Positions 1 through 64,000 are shown, numbered from the stretch's first letter. The stretch: 64,000 bases of DNA from an uncultured Chloroflexia bacterium (GCA_963766685.1 CAVYBJ010000017.1:248107-312106); one strand, 5' to 3'. Numbers and translations: made by a program. Notes: generated from the sequence alone by a model not told the origin.

Positions 1-886
1 GGGCCAGGGTGGCACCGATCGAGAGCTGGGCCAGCACGCTGACCAGCGTGTTCTGGAACAGGGCTCGCTCCCGGCGGAGGAACTGCCAGCCCTCGCGCAG
101 CTCGACGGTGAAGGCAGCCACGGCCCCGGCGACCCGCGGTCCGAGCTCCCGCGCAGCGGGGGGCACGATGATGCCGGCCAGCAGCACGGCACTGACCAGG
201 TAGGTCACCGAATCGACCCAGAAGGCCAGTGCCAGGTTGGTGCCGAGGAAGGCCACGAAGACGCCTGCCAGCGGGTAGCCGGCGATGTCGGCCACGGTCT
301 CGCCCGTCCAGATGGCGCCATTCGCCGGGGTGAGGTCCTCGCGACGCACGATGCGCGGCAAGATGGCCGCCTTGGCCGGCCGGAAGAACAGGCTGACGGT
401 GGTGACCCCGAAGACGAGCGGGTAGACCAGCACCACGTCGGCCTCCACGAGGAACGGGATGACGAGCACGAGGCCCGCACGGAGCAGGTCGCTCACGATC
501 ATCACCATCTTCTGGTCCCAGCGGTCGACGAACGTGCCCGCCAGCGGGCCGAGCAGGAGATTGGGCAGGGTGGCGGCCAGGAAGACCAGGCCGGTCTGAA
601 GGGCTGAGCCGGTGATCGAGAGCACCATGACGCCCAGCGCGATCTGGTGCAGGCGATCGCCGAACAGGCTGATGGTGCCCGCCAGCCAGAAGGCACTGAA
701 GCGCGCGTCCCTGGCGAGGCCGACGTACGGGTGCCTCCGGATCCGCTCGCCCAGGCTCGGCGCGACCGTCGGCCGGGCGACCCCGACGGCGGGCGCGGCA
801 TGCCCAGGATGCTCGAGGACAGCGGCGGTGCCGCGCCCGGGCCCCATCCCGCTTCCGAGCACGACCGGGCGATCCATGGCCATCGT
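1..886 (-). CDS. MFS transporter; its 3' end lies beyond the window start
   Basis: Minus-strand translation gives a typical MFS N-terminus (RHPYVGLARDARFSAFWLAGTISLFGDRLHQIALGVMVLS) followed by multiple TM helices. The ORF is open to position 1, so it is absent from the ORF track. A candidate ATG start lies at about 886. Confidence 0.6.
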
Positions 887-1632
887 CTCGCCTTGGCGCC
901 GGTCGGCTGGGTCGGTCCTCGGCTGACCGCGCCACAGGGACACCACTCCGGTGTTGGGGTCCGAGGAGCCCTTGGCCACGGCCGAGAAGAGGAACCAGGC
1001 GATGCCGGCGGCCAGCAGCACGTCACCCAGGCTGATCACGTTGGACAGGGAGAGGATGACGATGGGCAGGATGTCCCCGAGCGGACCGCCCGCGAGCAGG
1101 AACTCCAGGTTGAGCTGGTCCGGCAGGGCGACGTGGAACGTGGGTGACAGGTCGGCGGCCGTGAGCCCGGCCACCTGGACAGCCGGCACGAAGACCGGCA
1201 TGTACCCGCCGTTGAGCAGGATGGCCAGGCCGTTGGCCGCGACGCCCACCATCGCCAGCAGGAGGCCCGACTGCGAGCGGTTGAGCCACAGGGCTGCCAC
1301 GAGCATCCCGAACGCCGCGGCGAAGAGCGGGGCGCGGAGTTGATCCGCGATGCCCACGTCCTGCTCGATCAGCCATTGCGTTCCGAAGCGCAGGGCCAGC
1401 GCCAGCAGGATCAGGACTCCGTAGCGCAGCTGGATCGACAGGAGGTTGCGAAGCCGGCCGCCCGCCAGCAGGCCGAGAACCATGCCGAGGATGCCGGCGA
1501 TCAGGAGCAACGGATCACCCTCGCGCCCGATGGCGTCGTCGTGGCTTCGGCCAGAGCGATCGCCGTGAGACCCCGGAGGCGCTGCCGTCCCGGCCGACGC
1601 TCCGGCCAGTCGGTCGCGGGCAGGCCCGCCAT
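887..1632 (-). CDS. Polytopic membrane protein of unknown function, in frame with the downstream MFS ORF with no stop between them
   Basis: Minus-strand translation from an ATG at 1632 is hydrophobic and helix-rich (PLLLIAGILGMVLGLLAGG...LAAGIAWFLFSAVAKG). I found no stop codon before the MFS N-terminus. Confidence 0.4.
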
Positions 1633-1651
1633 CTGCTCGGAGGCCCCGAGT

Positions 1652-3025
1652 CTAGGGTTCAGCTACGGCTGAGCTGGACGGCAACGCACCCCGCGCGCGG
1701 ACTGCGGCGACCTGGCCCAGCGTCGGGACTGCCGCGTGCGGACGCTCAGGCTCGCCTCGCTGCTGATCCTCGTCCGCCCGATCCAGCCCCACGATCCGGG
1801 TGCGACTGAAGGCCTCCACCACCTGCGGGTCGAACTGGATGCCTGCGTAGCGCTGAAGCTCTGCCAGTGCCTCGGCCGGCTTCAGCGGCACAGGGCGGTA
1901 GGGTCGCGACGCCGTCATGGCCTCGAACGCGTCGGCTACGTGGAGGACCCTGGCCAGGAGCGGGATCTCCTCGCCGATGAGCCGATCAGGATAGCCCGAC
2001 CCGTTGTACCACTCGTGGTGATGTCGGATCAGCGGCCGAACCTTGGAGAGTTGGTCGACGTCCCTGAGGATCTCCTCGCCCTTCGCGGGATGCTCGTTCA
2101 TGAGCATTCGCTCCTCGCGCGTCAGTCGCTCCGGCTTGAGCAGGACCGCATCCCGGATGCCGATCTTACCGATGTCATGGAGGAGACCAGCCCACTCGAG
2201 TTGCTCGAGTTCGGGCTCGCTGAGGTTCATCACCTGGCCGATCTCCACGGCGATACCCGAGACATGGTCCGAGTGTCGTCGGGTACTTGGATCGCGAGCG
2301 TCGATGGCCGAGGCCAGCGCGCGAACGGTCTGCGTGAACATGTTGCGGATGTCCACGACCGCCTTGTAGGCGGCACGCGTCGTGTACAACGGCAGCGCAA
2401 AGACGAACGCGACCAGCGGCCCGATGAACACGTACGCCAGTGCCATCAGCCAGGCAATCGGCGTCAGGCCGACCATGGTCAGGCCATATGACTTGATGTT
2501 GCCCTCCAGAACCGCGGTGAACGAACGGTCGTCCCGCAGGGCCACGGCGACTGCGGTGAGGGACTCGGTGACAAGGAAGAAGAGGCTGCCTCCTACGAGG
2601 ACGGCGGCCAGCATTTGTGGCGACGTGATGCCTGCGTCGAACCATTGGACGACCACGCCAGCGAGAACGGCCGGAAGGACCACAAACGTGTGGTTGTAGA
2701 GCACGCCCCACCACGGGACCTCGCGACTGAGTTCGCGGCGCTCAATCGTGCCGAAGACAGCGACGATAGCCGCTGCCGTTGGTCCACCGAGCACTGCCAC
2801 AGCCAAAATGGGCGCGAAGTACACGCTCACGAACGGGCCGCGGGGAACATGGACCGGTGCAGCTGTGGTCAGGATGGTCAAGCCAATCCAGAACACCAGC
2901 CCAGGGAACCCGCTCACGGGTCCCTCGATAGCCTCGTCTACGGGCCAGAGATATAGGCTCGCAAATAGGACAATTGCGGCCGTCAGCGCGACGGCCGCAA
3001 CTAGCACCCAGAGCGACCTGTTCAC
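1652..3025 (-). CDS. HD-GYP domain cyclic-di-GMP phosphodiesterase with an N-terminal multi-TM sensor domain
   Basis: HDIGK...HHEWYNGSGYP motifs of the HD-GYP family sit in the C-terminal half. The N-terminal roughly 230 aa are hydrophobic with about 7 helices. Confidence 0.85.
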   Translation of the reverse strand: MNRSLWVLVAAVALTAAIVLFASLYLWPVDEAIEGPVSGFPGLVFWIGLTILTTAAPVHVPRGPFVSVYFAPILAVAVLGGPTAAAIVAVFGTIERRELSREVPWWGVLYNHTFVVLPAVLAGVVVQWFDAGITSPQMLAAVLVGGSLFFLVTESLTAVAVALRDDRSFTAVLEGNIKSYGLTMVGLTPIAWLMALAYVFIGPLVAFVFALPLYTTRAAYKAVVDIRNMFTQTVRALASAIDARDPSTRRHSDHVSGIAVEIGQVMNLSEPELEQLEWAGLLHDIGKIGIRDAVLLKPERLTREERMLMNEHPAKGEEILRDVDQLSKVRPLIRHHHEWYNGSGYPDRLIGEEIPLLARVLHVADAFEAMTASRPYRPVPLKPAEALAELQRYAGIQFDPQVVEAFSRTRIVGLDRADEDQQRGEPERPHAAVPTLGQVAAVRARGALPSSSAVAEP

Positions 3026-22336: not shown

Positions 22337-22373
22337 GAACGAGGGGCGCCTGCCCAATCAGCGCCCCTCGTTC
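22337..22373. other. Perfect 13-bp inverted repeat (GAACGAGGGGCGC - 11 nt - GCGCCCCTCGTTC) in a divergent promoter region
   Basis: Seen directly in the sequence. No T-tract follows, so it is not an obvious intrinsic terminator. Confidence 0.4.
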
Positions 22374-22464
22374 CGGAGGGAGGGAGAGGGAACGATGAAG
22401 GTCTACTTCACGGTTCCGTGGCTGAAGAGTAGTGCTCGTCGATGAAGGCGCCAGACCGTGAACG

Positions 22465-23904
22465 ATGAAGAAACGCACACTCGGTCGATCGCCCAGCGTC
22501 CGATCCCCGGTCCTGGGCCTGTCCGACGGGAGGCTGTCAGAATGCGAGGCGATGGCAGCCAGCGATGATCGCCGCCCGTGCGCGCCAGGTCGATGGAGGC
22601 TCACCGGCCCCGCGGCCGTGGCCCTCGCCCTCGTCCTCACGTCCGCGGCGCCGGCCGGGCGTCGCCATCGGGAAATCAGCGGCCGCTCCCTCTGCAACGC
22701 CGCAGGTCGGAGTCGTCACCGTGCCCGAGGGGCTCGATGCCAGGACGGCCAGGCAGGTGGACCGGGTGGTCGACTCGGTGCAGCCGATCCGAGGCCTGCC
22801 GCCCGCTGACGGCGTGCGGTACCGCATCGTCGACGCCGCGACCCTCGCGGCGGAGATCGAGGCCGACTACCCGCGAGCGAGTCACCGACGCCGACGTGGC
22901 CGCCGAAGACGCGGCCTTCACCCGTCTCGGGCTCATCGGTCCCGAAGACGAACTGGCGGCCTGGCTTCCCTCACTCGGCGCCGGCCAGGCGCTGGCCGCG
23001 TACGATCCCCGATCGGAGACCTTCTCGCTCGTCGGTCCCATCCGCAAGATCAGGGCTCCCGAGTCGGTCGTCGTGGCACACGAGTATGCGCACGCGCTCC
23101 AGGATGCCGCCTTCGACCTTGAGGCCGGGCGCGTGACTGATCTCGACCGGGCGGACGCCGCTCTCGCGCGGCAGGCCTTGGTCGGAGGGTGACGCCACCG
23201 CCGTCATGTATGACTGGGCAGCACGTGAGCTCGACCTGGCGGACCTCCTGGCGGTCTCCGCCCGCGCGTTCACGCGCCAGGACGACAAGGCGCTCCGGAA
23301 GATGCCCGTCCTGCTCCGACGCCAGCTCGAGTTCCCGTACATCGAGGGCTTCGCCTTCGTGAACGCCATTCGAGGTCGAGGGGACTGGGCAGCCGTGGAT
23401 GAGGCATGGCGAACTCGACCGACCTCGACCGAGCAGATCCTCCACCCCGAGCTCTACCCCGATGAAGCGCCGGTCGACATCGAGCTGCCCGACGTGGCAG
23501 CTCGACTCGGCGACGGTTGGTCGGCGACCTACCAACAGACGCTGGGCGAGATGCAGATGGGGGTCTGGTTGGCGGATGGCCAGAAGGCCCGGTCGGTCTA
23601 CCCGGTCCTGCCCGCGCGGCTGCCTCGGGCCGATGCTGCTGCCGGATGGGGAGGCGATCGACTCGTCAGCCTGGATGGGCCGGAGGGTGCCTGGGCCGTC
23701 GCTTGGCAGACCGACTGGGACAGCCGAGCCGATGCCAGGGAGTTCAGGGACGCCGCTCGCGAGGTCGTCAAGGACCTGCCCGGCGCACAGGCCATCTTGA
23801 ATGTCGACCTGGATGGAGGGCTATCCTCTCCAGTACTTGTTCTGCTGGCCGATAGCGAGACGACACTGGAGACCGTTCGGGCGGCGCTGGGGCTTGCGCC
23901 CTGA
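22465..23904 (+). CDS. Secreted or membrane-anchored MA-clan zinc metallopeptidase-like protein (HExxH...EG; Peptidase_MA_2-like). It carries three frame breaks near 22665, 22880 and 23192
   Basis: Signal/TM segment (AAVALALVLTSAAPAG), then VVAHEYAHALQD and a downstream FPYIEGFAFV motif. It aligns with the C-terminal domain of the giant protein at 30800-31997. Confidence 0.6.
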
Positions 23905-23944
23905 CCCTCGGTAGGTGGGCACGTGAAGCGAGGAGCGGCGGACG

Positions 23945-24040
23945 ATGAAGAAACGGACACCTGCGCCGGTACCGGCCCAGGTCGCGTATCCAGGGTGCTC
24001 GCACCCGCAGCCGAAGTCACCTAAGGTCCGCCTGCCATGA
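23945..24040 (+). CDS. 31-codon upstream ORF (MKKRTPAPVPAQVAYPGCSHPQPKSPKVRLP) whose TGA overlaps the ATG of the giant gene
   Basis: An ATGA start/stop overlap, and 5' sequence ACGATGAAGAAACG(G/C)ACAC shared with the start of the 22465 gene. Confidence 0.3.
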   Translation: MKKRTPAPVPAQVAYPGCSHPQPKSPKVRLP

Positions 24041-27000
24041 CTGATCAGCGGCCGGATCCCGGCGACCCTACTGCGTTCTCCGACCCCGTCGATCCCACTG
24101 GAGCATCGCCCGGCCAGGCGGAGGCCGAGGTCAACGCGACCGACCTGTCCGCAGCTAGCGCGACCGCCGACTCCGGCGATCTGGTCACCGGCCCCGACGC
24201 CGAGCCTTCCGAAGCGGACAGCGCGGACCAGGCTGCCGACGCGGGTCTTGGCGCGGCTGCCGTCTCAGCTGCCGCCTGGACGACGACGCCGGTGGCTCCC
24301 GATCCAGAGGCCACAGAGGCCGCCTTGGCCGCGCTGGCAGCGCGGCCCGAGGTGACCCTGGAGCCGCCTGAGGGTCCACCTCCGCAGCCACTCGGCATGG
24401 ACGAAGAGCCACCTGACGAGGGCACGCCCGTGCTGCTCGTGGGCGGCATCCTGGTGGGCGCCTTCATCGTGGCGCTGGCCATCGTCATCCTGCTCTTCCG
24501 GCCCTTCGACTCCGGCTCACCGGACGCGACCCTCTCGCCGTCGCCGGTCATGACGGAGGCCCCAAGCGCGAGCCCCTCGGCTCAAGCCGTCATCGACACC
24601 CCCAACTTCCAGGGCCTCAGCCTTGAGGAGGCCGAGCTCACGGCCGAGGACTATGGGCTCGTCGTCCGCGTCATCTCGGTCGTGAACGACGAAGCCGCGC
24701 CGGGCACCGTTCTGGGTCAGCAACCGCCCCCCGGCGAAGCCGTGCCCGTGGGATCCACCATCGAACTGTCCGTGGCTGTGGCCTCACCCACCGTCGCGGT
24801 GCCCGACATCCTCGACCTGCCCGAGGCGGAGGCCATGAAGGCCCTCGCCGATGCCGGTCTCTCGGCCGGTCTGCGCAGCACGGCCGCCGACCCGACCATC
24901 GTGGCCGGCAACATCGTCAGCTCGAACCCGGTGGCTGCCACGGAGGTGGCTCCCGGCTCGGCCATCAGCTACGTCGTCTCCAGCGGTCCCGCCCTGGTCG
25001 CGGTGCCCGACATCCTCGACCTGCCCGAGGCGGAGGCCATGAAGGCCCTCGCCGATGCCGGTCTCTCGGCCGGTCTGCGCAGCACGGCCGCCGACCCGAC
25101 CATCGTGGCCGGCAACGTCGTCAGCTCGAACCCGGTGGCTGCCACGGAGGTGGCTCCCGGCTCGGCCATCAGCTACGTCGTCTCCAGCGGTCCCGCCCTG
25201 GTCGCGGTGCCCGACATCCTCGACCTGCCCGAGGCGGAGGCCATGAAGGCCCTCGCCGATGCCGGTCTCTCGGCCGGTCTGCGCAGCACGGCCGCCGACC
25301 CGACCATCGTGGCCGGCAACATCGTCAGCTCGAACCCGGTGGCTGCCACGGAGGTGGCTCCCGGCTCGGCCATCAGCTACGTCGTCTCCAGCGGTCCCGC
25401 CCTGGTCGCGGTGCCGTCCTTCGAAGGCCAGTCGCTGACCGACGCCACGACGGCCGCCACCTCGGTCGGCCTGTTCCTCCGCGCGACCTCGATCGAAACC
25501 ACCGAGGCCGAGCCTGAGACCATCCTCGACCAGGATCCATCAACCGGCACCATGGTGGTGCGAGGCTCCACGGTAGATGTGGATGTCGCCGTCGCACCGG
25601 AGACCACCGCCGTGCCCGACCTGGCCGGCTCCGCCGACGAGGCCGCACAGGCCCTCGCCGACGCCCGCCTGGTGGGCGCCCCCTCCGAGGCCTTCAGCGC
25701 CGACGTGGCCGCCGGTGACGTCATGAGCCAGGATCCCGCCGCCGGCACCAGCGTGCCCGTGGGCTCCCGGTCGCCTACGTCGTCTCGCTGGGCGTCGAGA
25801 CCACCGCCGTGCCCGACCTGGCCGGCTCCGCCGACGAGGCCGCGCAGGCCCTCGCCGACGCCCGCCTGGTGGGTGCCCCCTCCGAGGCCTTCAGCGCCGA
25901 CGTGGCCGCCGGTGACGTCATGAGCCAGGATCCCGCCGCCGGCACCAGCGTGCCCGTGGGCTCCTCCGTCAGCCTACGTCGTCTCGCTGGGCGTCGAGAC
26001 CACCGCCGTGCCCGACCTGGCCGGCTCCGCCGACGAGGCCGCGCAGGCCCTCGCCGACGCCCGCCTGGTGGGCGCCCCCTCCGAGGCCTTCAGCGCCGAC
26101 GTGGCCGCCGGTGACGTCATGAGCCAGGATCCCGCCGCCGGCACCAGCGTGCCCGTGGGCTCCTCGGTCGCCTACGTCGTCTCGCTGGGCGTCGAGACCA
26201 CCGCCGTGCCCGACCTGGCCGGCTCCGCCGACGAGGCCGCGCAGGCCCTCGCCGACGCCCGCCTGGTGGGTGCCCCCTCCGAGGCCTTCAGCGCCGACGT
26301 GGCCGCCGGTGACGTCATGAGCCAGGATCCCGCCGCCGGCACCAGCGTGCCCGTGGGCTCCACGGTCAGCCTACGTCGTCTCGCTGGGCGTCGAGACCAC
26401 CGCCGTGCCCGACCTGGCCGGCTCCGCCGACGAGGCCGCGCAGGCCCTCGCCGACGCCCGCCTCGTGGGTGCCCCCTCCGAGGCCTTCAGCGCCGACGTG
26501 GCCGCCGGTGACGTCATGAGCCAGGACCCCGCCGCCGGCACCAGCGTGCCCGTGGGCTCCTCCGTCGCCTACGTCGTCTCGCTGGGCGTCGAGACCACCG
26601 CCGTGCCCGACCTGGCCGGCTCCGCCGACGAGGCCGCGCAGGCCCTCGCCGACGCCCGCCTGGTGGGCGCCCCCTCCGAGGCCTTCAGCGCCGACGTGGC
26701 CGCCGGTGACGTCATGAGCCAGGACCCCGCCGCCGGCACCAGCGTGCCCGTGGGCTCCTCGGTCGCCTACGTCGTCTCGCTGGGCGTCGAGACCACCGCC
26801 GTGCCCGACCTGGCCGGCTCCGCCGACGAGGCCGCGCAGGCCCTCGCCGCCGCCCGCCTGGTGGGTGCCCCCTCCGAGGCCTTCAGCGCCGACGTGGCCG
26901 CCGGTGACGTCATGAGCCAGGACCCCGCCGCCGGCACCAGCGTGCCCGTGGGCTCCCGGTCGCCTACGTCGTCTCGCTGGGCGTCGAGACCACCGCCGTG

Positions 27001-30000
27001 CCCGACCTGGCCGGCTCCGCCGACGAGGCCGCGCAGGCCCTCGCCGACGCCCGCCTGGTGGGTGCCCCCTCCGAGGCCTTCAGCGCCGACGTGGCCGCCG
27101 GTGACGTCATGAGCCAGGACCCCGCCGCCGGCACCAGCGTGCCCGTGGGCTCCACCGTCAGCCTACGTCGTCTCGCTGGGCGTCGAGACCACCGCCGTGC
27201 CCGACCTGGCCGGCTCCGCCGACGAGGCCGCGCAGGCCCTCGACGACGCCCGCCTGGTGGGTGCCCCCTCCGAGGCCTTCAGCGCCGACGTGGCCGCCGG
27301 TGACGTCATGAGCCAGGATCCCGCCGCCGGCACCAGCGTGCCCGTGGGCGCCACCGTCGCCTACGTCGTCTCGCTGGGCGTCGAGACCATCGCCGTGCCC
27401 GACCTGGCCGGCTCCGCCGACGAGGCCGCGCAGGCCCTCGAGGCCGCCCGCCTCGTGGGTGCCCCCTCCGAGGCCTTCAGCGCCGACGTGGCCGCCGGTG
27501 ACGTCGTCAGCCAGGATCCCGCCGCGGGCACCAGCGTGCCCGTGGGCGCCACCGTCAGCCTACGTCGTCTCGCTGGGCGTCGAGACCGTGGCCGTGCCCG
27601 ACCTGGCCGGCTCCGCCGACGAGGCCGCGCAGGCCCTCGAGGCCGCCCGCCTCGTGGGTGCCCCCTCCGAGGCCTTCAGCGCCGACGTGGCCGCCGGTGA
27701 CGTCGTCAGCCAGGATCCCGCCGCGGGCACCAGCGTGCCCGTGGGCGCCACCGTCAGCTACGTCGTCTCGCTGGGCGTCGAGACCGTGGCCGTGCCCGAC
27801 CTGGCCGGCTCCGCCGAGGAGGCCGCGCAGGCCCTCGAGGCCGCCCGCCTCGTGGGTGCCCCCTCCGAGGCCTTCAGCGCCGACGTGGCCGCCGGTGACG
27901 TCGTCAGCCAGGATCCGCCGCGGGCACCAGCGTGCCCGTGGGCGCCACCGTCGGCTACGTCGTCTCCCTGGGCGTCGAGACCGTGGCCGTGCCCGACCTG
28001 GCCGGCTCCGCCGAGGAGGCCGCGCAGGCCCTCGAGGCCGCCCGCCTCGTGGGTGCCCCCTCCGAGGCCTTCAGCGCCGACGTGGCCGCCGGTGACGTCG
28101 TGAGCCAGGATCCCGCCGCGGGCACCAGCGTGCCCGTGGGCGCCACCGTCAGCTACGTCGTCTCGCTGGGCGTCGAGACCGTGGCCGTGCCCGACCTGGC
28201 CGGCTCCGCCGAGGAGGCCGCGCAGGCCCTCGAGGCCGCCCGCCTCGTGGGTGCCCCCTCCGAGGCCTTCAGCGCCGACGTGGCCGCCGGTGACGTCGTG
28301 AGCCAGGATCCCGCCGCGGGCACCAGCGTGCCCGTGGGCGCCACCGTCAGCTACGTCGTCTCGCTGGGCGTCGAGACCGTGGCCGTGCCCGACCTGGCCG
28401 GCTCCGCCGACGAGGCCGCGCAGGCCCTCGAGGCCGCCCGCCTCGTGGGTGCCCCCTCCGAGGCCTTCAGCGCCGACGTGGCCGCCGGTGACGTCGTCAG
28501 CCAGGATCCCGCCGCGGGCACCAGCGTGCCCGTGGGCGCCACCGTCAGCTACGTCGTCTCCCTGGGCGTCGAGACCGTGGCCGTGCCCGACCTGGCCGGC
28601 TCCGCCGAGGAGGCCGCGCAGGCCCTCGAGGCCGCCCGCCTCGTGGGTGCCCCCTCCGAGGCCTTCAGCGCCGACGTGGCCGCCGGTGACGTCGTGAGCC
28701 AGGATACCCGCCGCGGGCACCAGCGTGCCCGTGGGCGCCACCGTCAGCTACGTCGTCTCCCTGGGCGTCGAGACCGTGGCCGTGCCCGACCTGGCCGGCT
28801 CCGCCGAGGAGGCCGCGCAGGCCCTCGAGGCCGCCCGCCTCGTCGGCTGCCCCCTCCGAGGCCTTCAGTGCCGACGTGGCCGCCGGTGACGTCGTCAGCC
28901 AGGATCCCGCCGCGGGCACCAGCGTGCCCGTGGGCGCCACCGTCAGCTACGTCGTCTCCCTGGGCGTCGCACCGACCGTCCTCGTTCCGGACGTCAGTGA
29001 CCTACCGAAAGCGGACGCCATCTCCACCATCGAGGCCACAGGTCTGGTCGTCGGCGAGACTGTGGAGAAGGGCAGTGAGTCTGTCGCCGCGGGCGACGTC
29101 ATCAAGACGGATCCTCCCGCCGACACTGAGCTCCAGCTCGGCGCGTCGGTGGACCTGTATCGTCTCGACTGGCTCGAGCCTCACCCTCGTGCCCGAGGTC
29201 AAGGGCCTCGCCGAGGCCGACGCCAACGCCACCATCGCGGCCGCCGGCCTCGTGGTGGGTGCCACCGAGCAGAAGACCAACGCCACCATCCCCGCCGGCC
29301 AGGCCGTCAAGACCGAGCCCGCCGCGGGCACCGAGGTGCAGCTCGGCTCGGCCGTCACCCTCACCGTCAGCAAGGGTCCCAAGCAGGTCAGCGTGCCCGC
29401 CATCGTGGGGCTCCTGCAGCCCGACGCCAAGGCCGCCATCACAGGCCGCCGAGCTCACGGTCGGCACCAACGGCGTGGTCGAGGACCCCAGCCCCAAGAA
29501 CACCGTCCTCTCCCAGGATCCGCCGGCCGACAGCATCGTGGCCGCCGGCAGCGCGGTGAACTACACCGTGAGCTCCGGTCCGCCGCTCACCCTCGTGCCC
29601 GAGGTCAAGGGCCTCGCCGAGGCCGACGCCAACGCCACCATCGCGGCCGCCGGCCTCGTGGTGGGGGCCACCGAGCAGAAGACCAACGCCACCATCCCCG
29701 CCGGCCAGGCCGTCAAGACCGAGCCCGCCGCGGGCACCGAGGTGCAGCTCGGCTCGGCCGTCACCCTCACCGTCAGCAAGGGTCCCAAGCAGGTCAGCGT
29801 GCCCGCCATCGTGGGGCTCCTGCAGCCCGACGCCAAGGCCGCCATCCAGGCCGCCGAGCTCACGGTCGGCACCAACGGCGTGGTCGAGGACCCCAGCCCC
29901 AAGAACACCGTCCTCTCCCAGGATCCGCCGGCCGACAGCATCGTGGCCGCCGGCAGCGCGGTGGACTACACCGTGAGCTCCGGTCCGCCGCTCACCCTCG

Positions 30001-31997
30001 TGCCCGAGGTCAAGGGCCTCGCCGAGGCCGACGCCAACGCCACCATCGCGGCCGCCGGCCTCGTGGTGGGTGCCACCGAGCAGAAGACCAACGCCACCAT
30101 CCCCGCCGGCCAGGCCGTCAAGACCGAGCCCGCCGCGGGCACCGAGGTGCAGCTCGGCTCGGCCGTCACCCTCACCGTCAGCAAGGGTCCCAAGCAGGTC
30201 AGCGTGCCCGCCATCGTGGGGCTCCTGCAGCCCGACGCCAAGGCCGCCATCCGGCCGCCGAGCTCACGGTCGGCACCAACGGCGTGGTCGAGGACCCCAG
30301 CCCCAAGAACACCGTCCTCTCCCAGGATCCGCCGGCCGACAGCATCGTGGCCGCCGGCAGCGCGGTGGACTACACCGTGAGCTCCGGTCCGCCGCTCACC
30401 CTCGTGCCCGAGGTCAAGGGCCTCGCCGAGGCCGACGCCAACGCCACCATCGCGGCCGCCGGCCTCGTGGTGGGGGCCACCGAGCAGAAGACCAACGCCA
30501 CCATCCCCGCCGGCCAGGCCGTCAAGACCGAGCCCGCCGCGGGCACCGAGGTGCAGCTCGGCTCGGCCGTCACCCTCACCGTCAGCAAGGGTCCCAAGCA
30601 GGTCAGCGTGCCCGCCATCGTGGGGCTCGCGGAACCGGATGCCCTGGCCACACTTGCGGCGGCCGAAGTCACGCCTGGCGCCCGCTCCGAGGCCAACAAC
30701 GACACCATCCCCTTCGGGGTCGTCGCGTCCCAGGACCCGCCCCAAGGCACGGTCGTGAACGCCGGAACCCCCGTCGCCTACACCGTCTCGATCGGCCCGG
30801 CGATCCAGCCGCGCGGTGTCGGGGGGACGCTCCAGGCGCCCGCCGTCATCGGCCAGCTCGACGCGATCGCCGCGACCATCCCGGCCCTGCGCGAGCTCCC
30901 GCCCGCGAACGCGCCATACGACGCGGTCAGCGCCAAGGACCAGCGCTCACTCCTCGCCGACCGGGCCGCGGCGATCCACCCGCCGGCCACCATCGCCGGT
31001 CGAGGAGGCCGCCCTCAAGCGCCTCGGCCTTCTCGCCGGAGGCGACGACCTCCAGAAGCTCCTGCGGCAGCTGTACGGGCAGCCGCTACCGGTGGCCTAC
31101 ACGGGCGGTGTCATCACCGTCGTCGACTCGCTCGAGAGCCTCTCGACGGGCGACCAGGCCCATGCAGCGCGCGAACTGGGCCGCTCGGCCACGGACGTCG
31201 CCTTCGGCCTCGGCCGGCTGCGCGTCGACGACGCCTCCCAGGGCGACCGAGCCCTCGCCGGCGTGGCGCTGGAGCAGGGCGACGGCACCGCCGTCATGCT
31301 CGACTGGCCCGCCGTGAGCGGGGCCACCGACCAGGCTGCCGTGGACGACGTCATCGTCCCTGGCGACGATGGGCTCCTGGCATCCATGCCCCAGCTCCTC
31401 CAGCGCGAGTACTCGCTGCCGTTCCTGGAGGGCCGGCTCTTCGTGGACAGGCTCCGCGAGAGCGGTGGCTGGGGCGCCGTGAACGCTGCCTGGTCCGACC
31501 CGCCGCGATCCACGGAGCAGATCCTCCATCCGAAGCTCTATCCCGGGGAGCAGCCTCGCCCGGTCGACCTGCCAGACCTCCGCGGCGCTCTCGGCGAGGG
31601 CTGGGGTGAGGCCTGGCGCCAGACCATGGGCGAGATGCGCATCGGCGTGTGGCTGGCCGACGGCCAGCCAGGGACCCAGGAGGGCCCGAAGGCACCCGTC
31701 AAGCTGCCGCGTGCCAACGCGGCGGCAGGCTGGGCGGGCGACCGCCTGGTCAGCCTCGACGGTCCCGGCGGCGCCTGGGCGATCGTCTGGCAGACGTCGT
31801 GGGACGGCGCGGAGGACGCGGGCCAGTTCACGGAGGCGGCGGCGGCCGCCATCGCGGACCTGCCCGGCGCCCATGCGGTGACCCCGGTGGATGTCTCCGG
31901 CACGGCTCCCGACCCCGTCCTCGTGCTCCTCACGAGCGATCCGGCCACGCTGGCGACCCTGCAGGCTGGCCTCGGGTTGGCGCCGCCCGCCGGCTGA
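24037..31997 (+). CDS. Giant (about 2,650 aa) single-pass membrane protein: an acidic low-complexity N-terminus, one TM helix, about 30 tandem PASTA domains, and a C-terminal degenerate MA-peptidase-like domain. It contains many single-nt frame breaks
   Basis: TM segment VLLVGGILVGAFIVALAIVILLF. The repeats VPDLAGSADEAAQALADARLVGAPSEAFSADVAAGDVMSQDPAAGTSVPVGSSVAYVVSLG match the PASTA fold pattern. The C-terminal domain aligns with the 22465 peptidase but reads QAHAAREL in place of HEYAH. Confidence 0.7.
24590..30800. repeat. Tandem coding repeat array: one divergent unit, 3 x 204 bp, one divergent unit, about 17 x 198 bp, one divergent unit, about 3.6 x 396 bp, one divergent unit
   Basis: Near-identical periodic units are visible directly. 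There is a graded variation along the array (ALADARL/GDVMSQ early, ALEAARL/GDVVSQ later). Confidence 0.85.
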
Positions 31998-35510: not shown

Positions 35511-35798
35511 GCTTTGTGGAGCATATCACGGCTCTGTGACAGCCACAACGGAGAATCTCGCAACAAACCCTTGACAAGCAGTGAACAGCTGGGCTATCGT
35601 TCCGCCATCAGGTCAACAGACCTTGGACACCAAGCGCAGAGCGAGGAGACAACCACATGACCGACCGGTGGTCCCGCTAGGGGCCCACGCCCGGGGGCGC
35701 AGAGCGCCTCGTCCGTCCCGCCGGTGGGCCTCGAGGCTCGCCTGACAGAGCAAGAGGCTCATCCCACTCATCAGGACTCGTGGAAAGGAACCAACCAG

Positions 35799-36566
35799 AT
35801 GCGAACCCAGAAGCTTTCCATCCTCGGCGCCGCCGTCGCGCTCGCAGCCGTCTCGGTCATCCCGGTCGGCGTTGCCGCCCAGGACGACGCAGCGGAGATG
35901 GCCAAGGTCCGCGTCGGGCACTTCAGCCCGGATGCGCCCGCGGTCGACGTCTACGCCAACGGTGGGGCCATCCTCACCGACGTTCCCTTCGGCGTGCTCT
36001 CGGAGTACCTCGAGGTCCCCGGCGGCACCTACACCATCGAAGTCGTGGCTGCAGGCGCTGATCCTGCTGACGGCGCCGTCATCGGCCCGGTCGATCTCGA
36101 CTTCGCGGCTGGCACCATGACCACCGTGGCCGCGACCAACGCCCTGGCCTCCATCGAGGCGCAGGTCCTGGTCGACGAGCCCAACCCGCAGGACGGCATC
36201 GCCCAGGTGCGCGTCGTCCACTACAGCGCTGACGCGCCGGCCGTGGACGTCGCCCTCGATGGCGGCGACGTGGTCGTCGAGAACCTTGCCTACCCTGCCG
36301 CCGCTGGCTACCTCGACCTGCCCGAGGGCGAGTACGACCTCGAGATCCGCCCGACCGGCACGACCGACGTCGCCTTCGACATCGATCCGCTGGCGCTGGC
36401 AGGTGGCAACAGCTTCACGGTCTTCGCCATCGGCTCCCTGGCTGACGGCTCCTTCACGGTCCTGCCCGCGGTCGATGCCAGCCTCATGGCTGACGACGAC
36501 ATGACGGCCGAGGAGTCCATGGCCGCCGAGGACGAGGCCATGGCCGAGGAGTCCCCCGAGGCCTAA
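35799..36566 (+). CDS. Secreted DUF4397 domain protein
   Basis: Signal peptide, then repeated VRVGHFSPDAPAVDVYANG / VRVVHYSADAPAVDVALDG motifs. A GGAAAGGAA ribosome-binding site precedes the ATG. Confidence 0.75.
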   Translation: MRTQKLSILGAAVALAAVSVIPVGVAAQDDAAEMAKVRVGHFSPDAPAVDVYANGGAILTDVPFGVLSEYLEVPGGTYTIEVVAAGADPADGAVIGPVDLDFAAGTMTTVAATNALASIEAQVLVDEPNPQDGIAQVRVVHYSADAPAVDVALDGGDVVVENLAYPAAAGYLDLPEGEYDLEIRPTGTTDVAFDIDPLALAGGNSFTVFAIGSLADGSFTVLPAVDASLMADDDMTAEESMAAEDEAMAEESPEA

Positions 36567-36664
36567 GCCCGACACCTTCCCCTGGGCCGGCAGTGTGCTT
36601 CCCCTTCGCACTGCCGGCCTACCCCACCCCGCTGACCCGAACGACCCGAAAGGAAGTCACCCAG

Positions 36665-37976
36665 ATGTCTCAACCAACCACCCGAGGGCGCAAGATGGCG
36701 CTCCTTGGCATGGCCGCCGCCCTCTCGGCCGCAGCGGTCGTCCCGACCGCCGCCGCTGCCCAGGACGAGATGGCCGCTGAGATGGCCAAGGTCCGCGTCC
36801 TCCACGGCGCCGGCGACGCCCCGGCCGTCGATGTCTACGCCGGCGGCAACCTGGTCGTCGAGGGCCTCGAGTACGCCAAGCATCACGGACTACCTCGAGG
36901 TCCCCGGTGGCGAGTACCAGATCCAGGTCGTGCCCAGCGGCGCCACCCTGGAGGAAGGCCCCGTCGTCATCGACGCACCCCTGACCTTCGACGCCGGCAC
37001 CATGACCACGGTCGCGGCGACCGGCAGCCTGGCCGCCGGCATCATCCCCCAGGTCCTGGCCGACGCCCCGGCGCCCACCGCTGATGGCTCGCAGGTCCGC
37101 GTCGTCCACTTCAGCTTCGACGCCCCGGCCGTGGACGTCGCTCCCGACGGCGGCGACGCGCTCATCACCGACCTGGCCTTCCCGAACAACACCGGCTACG
37201 TCGACCTGCCGGCCGGCGCCTACGACCTCGAGATCCGCGCCGCGGGCACGGACACCGTGGCCTTCGACATCCCCGAGGTCACGCTTCGACGCCGGGCACC
37301 AGCTACTCCGTGTTCGCCGTCGGCGGGCTGGAGGACGGCAGCTTCACGGTCGTGCCGGCCGTCGATGCGGCCCTGGCCGGCGTGCGTGTCGGTCACTTCT
37401 CGGCCGATGCCCCCAACGTCGACGTCTACGCCAATGGCAGCGCCATCCTGACCGACGTGCCCTTCGGCGCCATCTCCGACTATCTCTTCGTGCCGGCTGG
37501 CACGTACCAGATCCAGGTCGTGCCCGCGGGCGCATCCCTCGAGGAGGGCCCCGTGGTCATCGATGCCCCGCTCACCTTCGAGGGCGGCACGCTGACGACC
37601 GTGGCAGCCACCAATGAGCTCGCCAACATCACCCCGGTCGTCCTCAAGGACAAGCCGGCTCCGGTCGCCGATGAGGCCCAGATCCGCGTCGTGCACCTGA
37701 GCGCCGATGCGCCCAAGGTCGACGTGGCCGCTGACGGCAGCAGCGTCAAGGACGCCATCTTCAAGGGACCTCAAGTACGGCAAGGCCAAGGGCTACGCCA
37801 CCGTTCCCGCCGGCGAGTACGACCTTGAGGTCCGTCCCGCGGGCGAGAAGAAGGCCGCCTTCGACATCGACCCCCTGATGCTCGAGGCGGGCAAGTCCTA
37901 CAGCGCCATGGCCATCGGCCAGCTCGGCGGTGGCTCGTTCAACGTCATCCTCGTCGAGGATGCCGCGGTCAACTAG
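36665..37976 (+). CDS. Secreted DUF4397 domain protein with three or four DUF4397 repeats; 3-4 frame breaks
   Basis: Signal peptide and the same repeat motifs (VRVLHGAGDAPAVDVYAGG, VRVVHFSFDAPAVDVAPDG, VRVGHFSADAPNVDVYANG, IRVVHLSADAPKVDVAADG), spread across three reading frames. Confidence 0.6.
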
Positions 37977-38073
37977 ACCATCCGCGGAGACTCACGGGGA
38001 CCGGTGTCCATCGGTCCCCCCTCCGCTCCCTCACCCCTCTGACATCCGACACGAAGGAAGGAAGGAACCCCTG

Positions 38074-38640
38074 ATGTTCAAGAAGCTCATGGCCGGCGTC
38101 ATCCTGGCCGCCGTCTCCGTCACGGCCCTCGTCCCCGCCGCCGTCTCTGCCGCGCCTGGCACGACGATCGTGGACAAGGCGATCGCGGTGAACAGCCGAA
38201 CCGGTGACTACGACACGCTCCTGACCGCCGCGACCTGTGACTACCTGGGCGGTGCCGTCGTGGACGTGCTCTCCTCCCCCGACAAGACGCTCTTCGCCCC
38301 GACCGACGCAGCCTTCCGCCGCCTGGGCGATGCCCTCGGCCTCGGCAAGGCCGGCCTGAACCCCAGCAACGTCTGCAGCGTTGACAGCCTCCTTGGCGAC
38401 GGCGTCCTGCTCGACATCCTGGCCTACCACGTCATCGACGGCAAGGTGAATGCCAAGACGGCCGTCTCTGCCATCGGCTCGAAGGTCGAGATGCTCAACG
38501 GCGACAAGGCCGAGATCTCCGTGCGCGGCGGCAAGCTGCGCATCGACGACGCGGTCATCCTGGCGACGGACATCCGCGCCAGCAACCTGGGCATCATCCA
38601 CGTCATCCAGAAGGTCATGCTGCCGCCCTCCCTGGGCTGA
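38074..38640 (+). CDS. Secreted fasciclin (FAS1) domain protein
   Basis: Signal peptide, TLFAPTDAAFRRL and ILAYHVIDGKV FAS1 motifs. An AAGGAAGGAAGGAA ribosome-binding site precedes the ATG. Confidence 0.8.
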   Translation: MFKKLMAGVILAAVSVTALVPAAVSAAPGTTIVDKAIAVNSRTGDYDTLLTAATCDYLGGAVVDVLSSPDKTLFAPTDAAFRRLGDALGLGKAGLNPSNVCSVDSLLGDGVLLDILAYHVIDGKVNAKTAVSAIGSKVEMLNGDKAEISVRGGKLRIDDAVILATDIRASNLGIIHVIQKVMLPPSLG

Positions 38641-62230: not shown

Positions 62231-64000
62231 GTGGCTGAGCTCGGCCGGGTCCTGGCCGGCCGCTACCGGCTCGACCAGGTCCTCGGTCAGGGTGGCATGG
62301 CCACCATCTTCCGCGCCACGGACAGCAAGCTCGGCCGCGAGGTGGCCGTCAAGGTCCTGCGCCCGGAGTTCGGCAGTGACGCCCAGTTCGTGGAGCGCTT
62401 CCGCCACGAGGCCCAGGCCGCCGCGTCCCTGAGCCACCCCAACATCGTGCAGGTCTACGACTTCGGGACCGACCCGGCCGGGCCCTACATCGTCATGGAG
62501 CAGGTGGCCGGCGGCGACCTTTCCGTGGCTCTCGGCGAGCACGGAGCGCTGCCCCCTACCGCCGTCGCGCGCATCGGCCAGCAGGTCGCCGACGCTCTCG
62601 GCGGCCGCGCATGTCCGGGGCCTCATCCACCGCGACATCAAGCCCAGCAACATCCTGCTCTCGCCGGACGGCCGGGTGCAGGTGGCCGACTTCGGGATCG
62701 CCCACGTCGCCGCTCGCTCGCCCGTCACGTCGACCGGCATCACGCTCGGCAGCGTCCTCTACTTCAGCCCGGAGCAGGCTCGCGGCGACACGGCCAGCCC
62801 GGCCTCGGACGTCTACTCCCTGGGTCTCGTGATGTACGAGCTGCTCACCGGCCAGCGGCCCTTCTCCGGCGACTCGCCGGCGGCGGTCGCGGTGGCACGC
62901 CTGAGCGGCAGCGTGCCCTCGCCGATGCTCGTGCGGCCGGAGACGCCGCCACCGCTGGACGCCATCGTGCGCTGGTGCCTGGCCGTCGACCCGGCAGCGC
63001 GCCCAACGGCATCCGAGCTCTCACTGGCGCTGGCGCGCTTCGTCGCCGATCCCTCGGGTGCCGCCGCACTGGCAGCGGTGGGCATGACGGCCGGCCCCAG
63101 CGCCCCGGGGCCCGTTCCCGGGAGCGTGGCGCCCGCCCGGCTCAGCCAGCGGCCGGGGCATCGTCAAGGGGCTGCGGATGCCGAGCACGCCGGTTCGGGG
63201 CCCCTGGCCTGGGCAGCCGCCGGTCTGGGGCTGCTCGTCATCGTGGCCTCGGGGATCCTGCTCTTCATCCTCTTCAGCGGCATCGGGGACAGCGCCGCCT
63301 CGCCCAGCCCCAGCCCAACGGCCGAGGTGGCCATGGTCCGGACCCCACAGCTGGTCGGTCGCAGCGAAGAGGACGCCGTCACCGTCGCACGCCGGCGCGG
63401 CCTGGTGCTGGAGATCGACTACGTCGGATTCCGCGAGCGAGGTCGGATCGGTCATCGACCAGCTGCCCGGACCCGGCGTCCAGGTTCCCTCCGGCACATC
63501 GATCCAGGTGACCGTGGGCACGCAGGTGGAGACCGTCGTCGTGCCCGACGTGCACGGCTTCAAGGAGGCCACCGCCGTCGCCGAGCTGGAGGCGGCGGGC
63601 CTGAAGGCGGGCATGCGCTACAGCGCGGACGACCTGCTGCCTGAGGGGTACGTCGTCGCCACCGATCCCCGTCCAGGTGAGTCGCTGACGCGAGGCTCTG
63701 ACGTCGACTACGTGGTATCCACGGGTCGCCGCACGGGCGCCGCGACCAGGCCGGCCGGTCACTCCCCGCCCCGTGGTGACCCTCCGGCCGAGCGCCACCT
63801 TCACGCCCCTACCCGCTCAGGACGTCGTGCTCGTGGGCGACTTCCAGTGCCTGAAACTGGCCGAGGCGCGAAGGCACATCGAGGAGGCCGGCCTGCTCGT
63901 CGGGGCCATCATCCCAAGCGAGCCGACACCACTGGACGACTGGTTCGTCCACGACCAGCTGCCCAAGCCAGGCGAGATGGTGCCCGTGGGCTCCAACGTG
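62231..64000 (+). CDS. PknB-like Ser/Thr protein kinase with a TM segment and extracellular PASTA domains; runs off the window end, with several frame breaks
   Basis: [15 protein letters not shown] (Gly loop and Lys), [20 protein letters not shown]; TM segment [15 protein letters not shown]; PASTA-like segments follow. Confidence 0.8.

Follow-up and report, generated by a model that had tools for sequence, protein, structure and literature searches.

Organization of the locus

The stretch of DNA analysed here, 64,000 nucleotides from an uncultured Chloroflexia bacterium (GCA_963766685.1, CAVYBJ010000017.1:248107-312106; termed the window, from whose first letter all positions are counted), contains at 24037–31997 a gene coding for a giant protein which combines an acidic N-terminal tail, a single transmembrane (TM) helix, 31 tandem PASTA domains and a C-terminal DUF8575 domain in which the presumed zinc ligands of a metallopeptidase are replaced. 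A gene for a DUF8575 paralogue with intact ligand motifs precedes it on the same strand. The features of the locus are compiled in Table 1.

The single gene of about 8 kb which a sequence-only reading of the stretch had proposed is not open in the DNA as sequenced: the frame switches repeatedly, 13 single-base indels (nine insertions and four deletions) interrupt it, and the longest open stretches comprise 628 and 1,225 codons. Reversing the indels by nine deletions and four insertions restores a single stop-free open reading frame (ORF) of 7,956 nt, coding for 2,651 amino acids. The G+C content across the gene is 72–78%, with strongly negative GC skew. That the region codes for one polypeptide is supported by two related loci in which the orthologous ORF is uninterrupted, namely L008 (4577..12430; 2,617 aa with 30 PASTA domains) and L010 (2564..12232; 3,222 aa with 38 PASTA domains); long open ORFs of 1,918 and 1,260 aa are found in the loci L001 and L004, respectively.

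Table 1. Features of the giant PASTA-array gene and its surroundings in the window
Feature	Position (nt)	Residues (aa)	Strand	Basis or remark
Conserved non-coding stretch upstream of the paralogue	22360-22560			about 200 nt; between divergent Lactamase_B_3 gene and paralogue
Upstream DUF8575 paralogue	22552..23904		+	NF038145 match, alignment; hydrophobic N-terminal signal-like segment; HEYAHALQD and EGDAT intact
Conserved 5' leader	23925..24040		+	alignment
31-codon upstream ORF (MKKRTPAPVPAQVAYPGCSHPQPKSPKVRLP, then stop)	23945-24040		+	alignment
Giant PASTA-array gene	24037..31997		+	2,651 codons after 13 single-base corrections
Predicted cytoplasmic N-terminal tail, acidic, low-complexity	24037..24429	1-131	+	no Pfam domain; N-terminus alignment
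Juxtamembrane motif AAWTTTPVAPDPEATEAALAALAARPEVTLEPPEG	24268-24372	78-112		35 residues
Single TM helix VLLVGGILVGAFIVALAIVILLF	24430..24498	132-154	+	read from translation
Array of 31 PASTA domains	24592..30805	186-2255	+	Tandem Repeats Finder (TRF), Pfam, own hidden Markov model (HMM) on three forward frames, unit typing
Unit A	24592-24792			
Units B	24793-25404			3 units of 204 bp, 68 aa
Unit C	25405-25605			
Units D	25606-28974			17 units of 198 bp, 66 aa
Unit E	28978-29182			
F/G pairs	29183-30601			405 bp, 68 + 67 aa; last unit is F
Terminal variant unit H	30602-30805			
C-terminal DUF8575 (PF26686)/Hvo_1808-like domain, gluzincin-like fold	30806..31997	~2256-2651	+	RELGR for HExxH, QGDGT for EGDAT
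Indel sites in giant gene (approximate)	25770(-1), 25974(+1), 26371(+1), 26959(-1), 27164(+1), 27561(+1), 27914(-1), 28705(+1), 28845(+1), 29161(+1), 29441(+1), 30252(-1), 31000(+1)			
Non-repeat 1-nt insertions relative to L008	22655, 22870, 23176, 29161, 31000			first three interrupt the paralogue
DUF4397/fasciclin cluster	35724-38640			three DUF4397 paralogues and a fasciclin-domain protein, then glycosyltransferases
Separate PknB-type kinase gene with a PASTA domain	62231..64000		+	frameshifted, runs off the window; context, outside the system

PASTA array

On the corrected protein, the Pfam model PF03793 matched 31 stretches with 983 bits (cut-off 23.2), in agreement with the roughly 30 tandem domains noted earlier, and PASTA was the sole real Pfam domain; the model also matched each of the uncorrected in-frame pieces. 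TRF detected 3.1 copies of a 204-bp repeat (99% matches), 17.0 copies of a 198-bp repeat (98%) and 3.6 copies of a 405-bp repeat (99%). Of three sub-families proposed before, those with periods of 204 and 198 bp could thus be retained, while the third period is 405 bp, the length of two PASTA domains; the 396-bp period given for it (396/397 bp) is merely twice the 198-bp unit. When aligned, individual 198-bp units have lengths of 197, 198 or 199 bp. Many units are identical at the protein level, and the D units split into two sequence sub-blocks. The first unit begins about 30 residues past the TM helix.

A predicted model of two domains of an orthologue shows the PASTA fold, consisting of one helix and a small beta-sheet, in head-to-tail tandem copies, and the modelled pair superposes as one body on PASTA1-2 of PknB and on the PASTA domains of Stk1 of S. 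aureus. Ectodomains of PknB and PrkC rise roughly 3–3.5 nm per PASTA domain; the stalk would be extended, and its 31 units would have a length of about 100 nm. PASTA ectodomains have been described as linear and regular (PMC3601408).

Membrane anchor and N-terminal tail

The N-terminal 185 residues contain no Pfam domain, and the TM helix is the one hydrophobic stretch among them. No Pkinase match was obtained for residues 1-251 at E ≤ 1 or for the whole protein at E ≤ 0.001, and no transpeptidase or PBP-dimer domain was matched by Pfam in the corrected 2,651-aa protein. A hidden kinase or penicillin-binding protein (PBP) domain is ruled out by these scans, and the architecture described in the sequence-only reading, a short acidic tail and one TM helix with neither kinase nor transpeptidase, holds. 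The PASTA kinase likewise reported to lie separately at 62231 is present; its Pkinase match (model positions 1-111) lies in one frame and its PASTA domain, at 63535-63735, in another.

To our knowledge, all characterised proteins have their PASTA domains outside the cell. Because of this, and because the upstream paralogue begins with a signal-peptide-like segment, we infer a type-II topology (N-in/C-out) for the giant protein. Alignment of the N-termini encoded by the window, L001, L008 and L010 indicated that the start of the tail (MTDQRPDPGDP) is conserved and that the TM helix and the juxtamembrane motif are nearly invariant, the remainder of the tail being hypervariable. Possible functions of the juxtamembrane motif are docking of a cytoplasmic partner and sorting.

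A conserved pseudo-peptidase domain and its active paralogue

The homology of the C-terminal domain to the adjacent HExxH peptidase, noticed earlier, was substantiated by an alignment with the reconstructed paralogue (44% identity over 388 aa, E 4e-89). Both match the NCBIfam model NF038145 for Hvo_1808 family surface proteins (E 1e-23 and 84 bits for the C-terminal domain, E 2e-43 and 149 bits for the paralogue), with scores under the 200-bit equivalog cut-off. A local Pfam scan of the C-terminal domain and the paralogue gave no match even at E ≤ 1; the assignment to PF26686 (DUF8575) comes via the precomputed annotation of orthologues with 58–70% identity. In a sequence search of the PDB with the family profile, 3cmn alone was retrieved (E 0.88). 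The predicted fold of the C-terminal domain is that of a thermolysin-like catalytic domain and matches 3cmn and the catalytic domains of M1 and M30 peptidases, collagenase and thermolysin, a kinship which is clear from fold comparison only.

Gluzincins carry HExxH...NEGxA motifs. The paralogue possesses both HEYAH and the downstream EGDAT, and members of the active clade show HEY[GAD]HALQD followed by EGDAT about 30 residues on (typically HEYGHALQD/EGDAT). By analogy, the HExxH/EGDAT residues are the presumed zinc ligands. In the giant protein, RELGR is aligned to HEYAH, so that both histidines are replaced by arginine and the glutamate is kept, and QGDGT is aligned to EGDAT. The catalytic motif is thus replaced, as the first reading had it, though not by QAHAAREL, the residues named there. 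REFGR/QGDGT-type ligand loss is found in the clusters P0001-P0048 that cover the motifs, which comprise all relatives with at least 50% identity; variants within this dead clade include RAFDG in P0005 and EGDGT in P0003 and P0012. STEQILHP and GD are invariant in both clades, and the catalytic-type glutamate is retained. The ratio of nonsynonymous to synonymous substitution rates (dN/dS) of the C-terminal domain was 0.09 relative to L008 and 0.23–0.24 in deep comparisons, as compared to 0.25–0.26 for the active paralogue. Because the loss of the three presumed ligands is conserved in about 48 orthologue clusters, the groove motifs are kept and dN/dS is low, the sequences identify the domain as a conserved pseudo-peptidase under purifying selection rather than debris, in line with the pseudo-enzyme suspected at the outset. 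The zinc-less domain most likely acts as a binding module rather than as a protease.

PASTA-fused members with intact HExxH exist (P0050, P0051, P0054 and P0095, of which P0054 adjoins ArgRS as in the window), as do TM-anchored members with intact HExxH and without PASTA domains (P0083, P0096). The active relatives with PASTA fusions probably represent the ancestral state. A likely history starts from an anchored active protease which was duplicated; of the two copies, the free secreted one remained active, and the other, still anchored, was deprived of its metal site as the stalk grew.

Intact paralogues of 448–471 aa are encoded at the equivalent position in L001, L004, L008 and L010. Across the loci, the paralogue gene lies 90–130 bp upstream on the same strand (132 bp in the window), and the giant gene is probably co-expressed with this secreted-looking protein; since promoter and terminator scans around the giant gene were uninformative, operon status is something that we infer from the arrangement. 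In L010, the signal-like segment of the paralogue includes RRKRLF, possibly a twin-arginine motif.

Orthologous loci and variation of repeat number

The synteny Lactamase_B_3 (-)/DUF8575/giant PASTA gene/ArgRS (-) is shared by eight other distinct loci (L001-L004, L006, L008, L010 and L012, with L011 and L001 being one contig), all from uncultured Chloroflexota with homologues labelled Candidatus Limnocylindrales. PASTA units were counted on three forward frames with an HMM built from the units of the window, the counts being approximate in frameshifted loci. As compared to 31 units in the window, there are 30 in L008, 34 in both L001 and L006, 38 in L010, about 36 in each of L012, L003 and L004, and about 24 in L002. 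Over the nine loci, 3–22 copies of B, 2–18 copies of D and about 3–6 F/G pairs were counted. L010, with 22 copies of B and just 2–3 of D, is the reverse of the window. Even in the closest pair, window and L008, whose flanks are 92–97% identical at the nucleotide level, B (3 versus 4) and F/G (4 versus 3) differ, both being long-read consensus assemblies. The order A-B-C-D-E-FG-H is kept in the window, L008, L001 and L002; the distant loci contain extra or substituted units.

Units are homogenised inside each genome and differ between genomes, with 100% identical units occurring within L008 and within L010, a sequence pattern which indicates concerted evolution of the PASTA units. Short-read contigs end at or inside the array (L005, L007, L009 and L085-L090).

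PASTA arrays in other proteins

A search of 1.84 billion representative proteins with the PASTA-unit profile of the window retrieved at least 15 other clusters with 20–32 PASTA stretches, and dozens more with 10–20. Of the 80 best-scoring clusters tabulated, one contained DUF8575; the heads of others are Big_9, cadherin, PKD and dockerin domains or a right-handed beta-helix. The possibility that all giant PASTA arrays are fragments of the DUF8575-headed family is thereby ruled out. No kinase domain was found in any of the eight giant PASTA proteins scanned. A separate family from other phyla (P0123, P0126, P0130, P0141, P0150, P0181 and P0185), which represents a further PASTA-stalk design, joins 10–30 PASTA domains to a conserved C-terminal part of about 374 aa, in which 'LVELQNxDGGWD' alpha/alpha-toroid-like repeats, recognised by eye, are followed by a dockerin-like tail. 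MHC4645350.1, a 'PASTA domain-containing protein' of 3,298 aa from a metagenome-assembled genome (MAG) of Planctomycetota, has 30 PASTA domains and a C-terminus of the QNxDGGWD type.

The design is therefore not unique, large PASTA arrays with other heads being present in metagenomic proteins. The earlier statement that no equivalent has been described holds for the literature searched, in which no paper was found that deals with giant PASTA-array proteins, DUF8575 or stalks made of PASTA, or that joins PASTA arrays with Chloroflexi or Limnocylindria; it does not hold for sequence data, which contain orthologues in at least eight other long-read MAGs besides the clusters with other heads.

Conserved leader and gene neighbourhood

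In the alignment, the 132 bp that separate the paralogue from the giant gene show higher conservation than the coding DNA. This spacer holds an upstream ORF (uORF) which is preceded by GAGGAG 8 nt upstream of its start and whose stop codon shares bases with the start codon of the giant gene (TGA and ATG within ATGA). Both ends of the uORF are conserved (MKKRT...KVRLP), and its length is exactly 96 nt in seven loci as well as in all five metagenome contigs with a complete copy. An exact 26-nt leader pattern was found in seven metagenome contigs; an orthologue follows directly 3' in four, and two, one of them ending within the uORF, end too early to tell. The seventh, L091, contains a 32-codon ORF with a different C-terminus and no recognisable orthologue downstream. 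These features of the uORF suggest that the giant gene is controlled by translational coupling or by a leader peptide. Folding predictions include a long-range helix that would occlude the main start; neither strand of this helix varies, so that it has no covariation support.

Within the non-coding stretch before the paralogue, there are a hairpin of invariant sequence, GGGAACnnTGAAG...CTTCAcGGTTCC, and another GAACGATGAAGAAACGCACAC (MKKRT-type) element, resembling that before the giant gene. Searching Rfam with both conserved leaders, that of the giant gene and that of the paralogue, yielded nothing meaningful.

Directly downstream of the ArgRS/LactB/MerR-B12 block, the DUF4397/fasciclin cluster (Table 1) is conserved, also in L001 (15427-18253). 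Possibly, this cluster is a cell-surface locus which accompanies the PASTA gene in all relatives.

Proposed role and alternative explanations

We propose, with moderate confidence, that the giant protein is a variable-length, membrane-anchored surface stalk which displays a dead-peptidase binding head and probably acts together with the secreted active paralogue, similar to the Periscope or fibrillar stalk proteins of Gram-positive bacteria such as SasG, Aap, Rib and Sgo_0707 (Whelan et al. 2021, PMC8201768). The TM helix would anchor the protein with its N-terminus inside, and the 31 head-to-tail PASTA domains would form the long stalk, whose repeat number would be adjusted through unequal recombination, as is the case with Periscope proteins. 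The distal zinc-less gluzincin domain would hold a ligand without cutting it, or dock to or regulate the active paralogue. In addition, PASTA units close to the membrane may touch peptidoglycan. We favour a stalk of variable length because the DNA repeats are nearly identical, the modules expand and contract independently, and a non-repeat head is located at the distal end; 24–38 units with a repeat DNA identity of 98–99% fit such a stalk better than a fixed ruler.

Several points weigh against this proposal. The variation in copy number is seen between related MAGs, the closest pair being the window and L008, and long-read consensus may miscount identical repeats, so that each count may be off. 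The totals cluster at 30–38 despite differing expanded modules, which could equally mean a set length, as in a ruler. The rod geometry is taken from a two-domain orthologue model and from PknB/PrkC structures. The arrangement also differs from that of Periscope proteins, which have a C-terminal LPXTG wall anchor and an N-terminal head, as compared to the N-terminal TM anchor with a cytoplasmic tail and the C-terminal dead-metallopeptidase head predicted here.

A more far-reaching version of the stalk proposal is speculative, and we consider it improbable in its entirety: beyond sensing peptidoglycan or lipid II, PASTA would be a widespread and so far overlooked building block for very long extracellular stalks of variable length in uncultured bacteria (Chloroflexota, Planctomycetota and others), and the zinc-less domain would serve as a 'bait' up to about 100 nm from the membrane that captures substrate for, or tethers, the secreted paralogue, at a working distance set by repeat number and with synthesis gated by translational coupling to the family-specific uORF.

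Among the alternatives, a multivalent peptidoglycan binder, ruler or scaffold, as suggested by the sequence-only reading, is possible, in which the PASTA domains would retain the muropeptide- or lipid-II-binding role of those in PknB-type kinases and the array would run within or along the wall, anchor or measure it, and position the dead-peptidase domain, with a probability well below that of a variable stalk. Binding of muropeptides by PASTA ectodomains of PrkC and PknB (PMC3601408; PMC6428115) and the start of the array so close to the TM helix are consistent with it, and the PASTA kinase of the genome suggests a peptidoglycan wall. The clustering of totals, which could mean selection on length, is shared by eight of the nine loci. 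Against it, an array of about 100 nm, if extended, would far exceed typical wall thickness, one locus has only about 24 units, and arrays of 20–30 units are also joined to cadherin/PKD/dockerin, beta-helix and alpha/alpha-toroid heads, which are typical of extracellular stalk proteins.

It is doubtful that the protein is a transmembrane receptor whose array senses an extracellular cue and whose juxtamembrane motif signals to a separate cytoplasmic partner. Near-invariance of the 35-residue motif and the TM helix across loci whose ArgRS are only about 75% identical, with an otherwise variable tail, would agree with such a function, yet Pfam recognised no signalling domain in the tail, none of the conserved neighbours (FTCD, metallo-beta-lactamase-fold proteins, ArgRS, MerR-B12, DUF4397 and fasciclin) is an evident partner, and we know of no precedent among receptors for 31 near-identical sensor domains.

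That the copy in the window is a true pseudogene, decaying through 13 real frameshifts, is very unlikely in spite of 13 frame breaks within 8 kb and a further three in the gene of the paralogue. The signs of decay that might accompany them, namely relaxed selection, stops and a lost PASTA consensus, were not observed: the 13 one-base edits leave no in-frame stop, all 31 units match PASTA, and the C-terminal domain has the low dN/dS relative to L008 given above. As compared to the intact orthologue of L008, the closest relative (92–94% nucleotide identity to the gene), all non-repeat frameshifts are 1-nt insertions in the window. The in-repeat indels fall at positions which differ between units and result in hybrid sequences; for example, GTCGCCTAC and GTCAGCTAC give GTCAGCCTAC, and GGT/GGC give GGCT. 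Other in-repeat indels change GGCTCC[TCG] to GGCTCC-CG, or GCCATCCAGG to GCCATCACAGG in one copy and to GCCATCCGG in another. GATC and CCAGG contexts are typical nanopore error sites, and some of the indels in the window lie in them.

Frameshifts are not confined to this gene. Within the window, the DUF4397 gene at 36665-37704 (four frames), the upstream paralogue (22552-23904; three frames) and the kinase gene (62231-63644) are broken as well; the relatives derive from 'MFD...' MAGs with Flye-style contig names, and in L002 even ArgRS is fragmented. ArgRS, LactB, MerR-B12, UDPGT and others are intact in the window, frameshifts clustering in genes of secreted or surface proteins and in the kinase gene. 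The error rate is thus not uniform, a point in favour of decay; the uneven spread suggests consensus errors where the co-assembled strains differ most. Because other genes are affected, L008 is intact, the source looks error-prone and selection is visible, the 13 frameshifts are probably long-read consensus errors and not gene decay, one likely cause being mixed strains or repeat units in the read pile-up. Owing to such errors, the exact unit count of the window is less certain.

An assembly artefact, in which repeat mis-assembly inflated a few units, is the least probable explanation and can practically be dismissed: identical repeats are hard to count, and the 100% identical units in L008 and L010 could reflect consensus homogenisation, but nine independent assemblies from different samples reproduce 24–38 units with lineage-specific sequences in conserved order, 14 distinct units can be followed to the edge of the short-read contig L005, the three modules are separated by single units of their own type (A, C, E and H), and the two D sub-blocks of the window are unexpected for a collapsed and expanded repeat. 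The expansion of a few units, which the sequence-only reading had named as a way in which it might fail, is ruled out by the counts across loci and by the L005 contig.

Significance

PASTA domains have been studied almost exclusively as sensor modules, present in 1–5 copies in kinases and PBPs that govern wall growth and beta-lactam responses. In a family with 24–38 PASTA domains and no enzyme attached, the fold is used in bulk as a structural element, and other giant PASTA arrays bear adhesin-like heads; in view of both, 'beta-lactam-binding protein with PASTA domain' should be assigned with more caution as an automatic label. The pairing of two DUF8575 gluzincins, one dead and one live, provides a first functional handle on a family of no known role and, if the more far-reaching version of the stalk proposal is true, would be an enzyme/pseudo-enzyme pair whose working distance from the cell depends on repeat number. 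Short-read assemblies break the arrays, leaving 'partial' proteins, and error-prone long-read consensus turns them into frameshifted fragments; for both reasons, giant PASTA genes are systematically under-counted.

Comparison with known systems

With the PASTA Ser/Thr kinases PknB, PrkC and StkP, the giant protein shares the N-in orientation, one TM helix and an extracellular linear head-to-tail array. It differs from them in lacking a Hanks-type kinase domain, in place of which there is a 131-aa acidic tail, in having 31 rather than 3–4 PASTA domains, and in the added C-terminal DUF8575 domain. Unlike class B PBPs of the PBP2x type, it has no transpeptidase domain N-terminal to PASTA. Proteins of the MHC4645350.1 type resemble it in that most of a large extracellular protein consists of 20–32 tandem PASTA domains and neither a kinase nor a PBP domain is present; their heads differ, however, a signal peptide replaces the tail and TM helix, and they belong to other phyla and have been annotated only automatically.

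The C-terminal domain appears related to the DUF8575/Hvo_1808 family, by a model match under the equivalog cut-off and by the annotation of orthologues, and by fold to MA-clan gluzincins such as the M1 aminopeptidases and thermolysin, a relationship underlined by HExxH and EGDAT in the paralogue. With both histidines changed to arginine and the distal glutamate to glutamine, the giant protein cannot be an active member of that clan. In the literature searched, no function is known for any DUF8575 or Hvo_1808 protein. Degenerate homologues of envelope hydrolases, such as the dLytM factors EnvC and NlpD, act as regulators or binders. As in these factors and in pseudopeptidases (reviewed in PMC11266112), metal ligands are lost, fold and groove residues are kept under purifying selection, and an active relative adjoins; the protease family is a different one, and a regulatory role would be an analogy. 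HVO_1808 itself appears solely as a model Tat lipoprotein or lipoprotein test substrate (PMC2945643).

A close parallel to the overall design is offered by the Periscope proteins. PASTA is not mentioned in the papers on these proteins or in the fibrillar-adhesin survey, and the PASTA stalk domain, the three independently expanding modules and the host, an uncultured soil member of the Chloroflexota (Limnocylindrales) rather than a host-associated Firmicute, set the present family apart. In both, tandem folded domains are encoded by nearly identical DNA repeats (98–99%), and short-read assemblies break within the array. The differing repeat numbers of related MAGs (24–38 units) and the non-repeat C-terminal domain, membrane-distal in the predicted topology, would fit the Periscope pattern as well.

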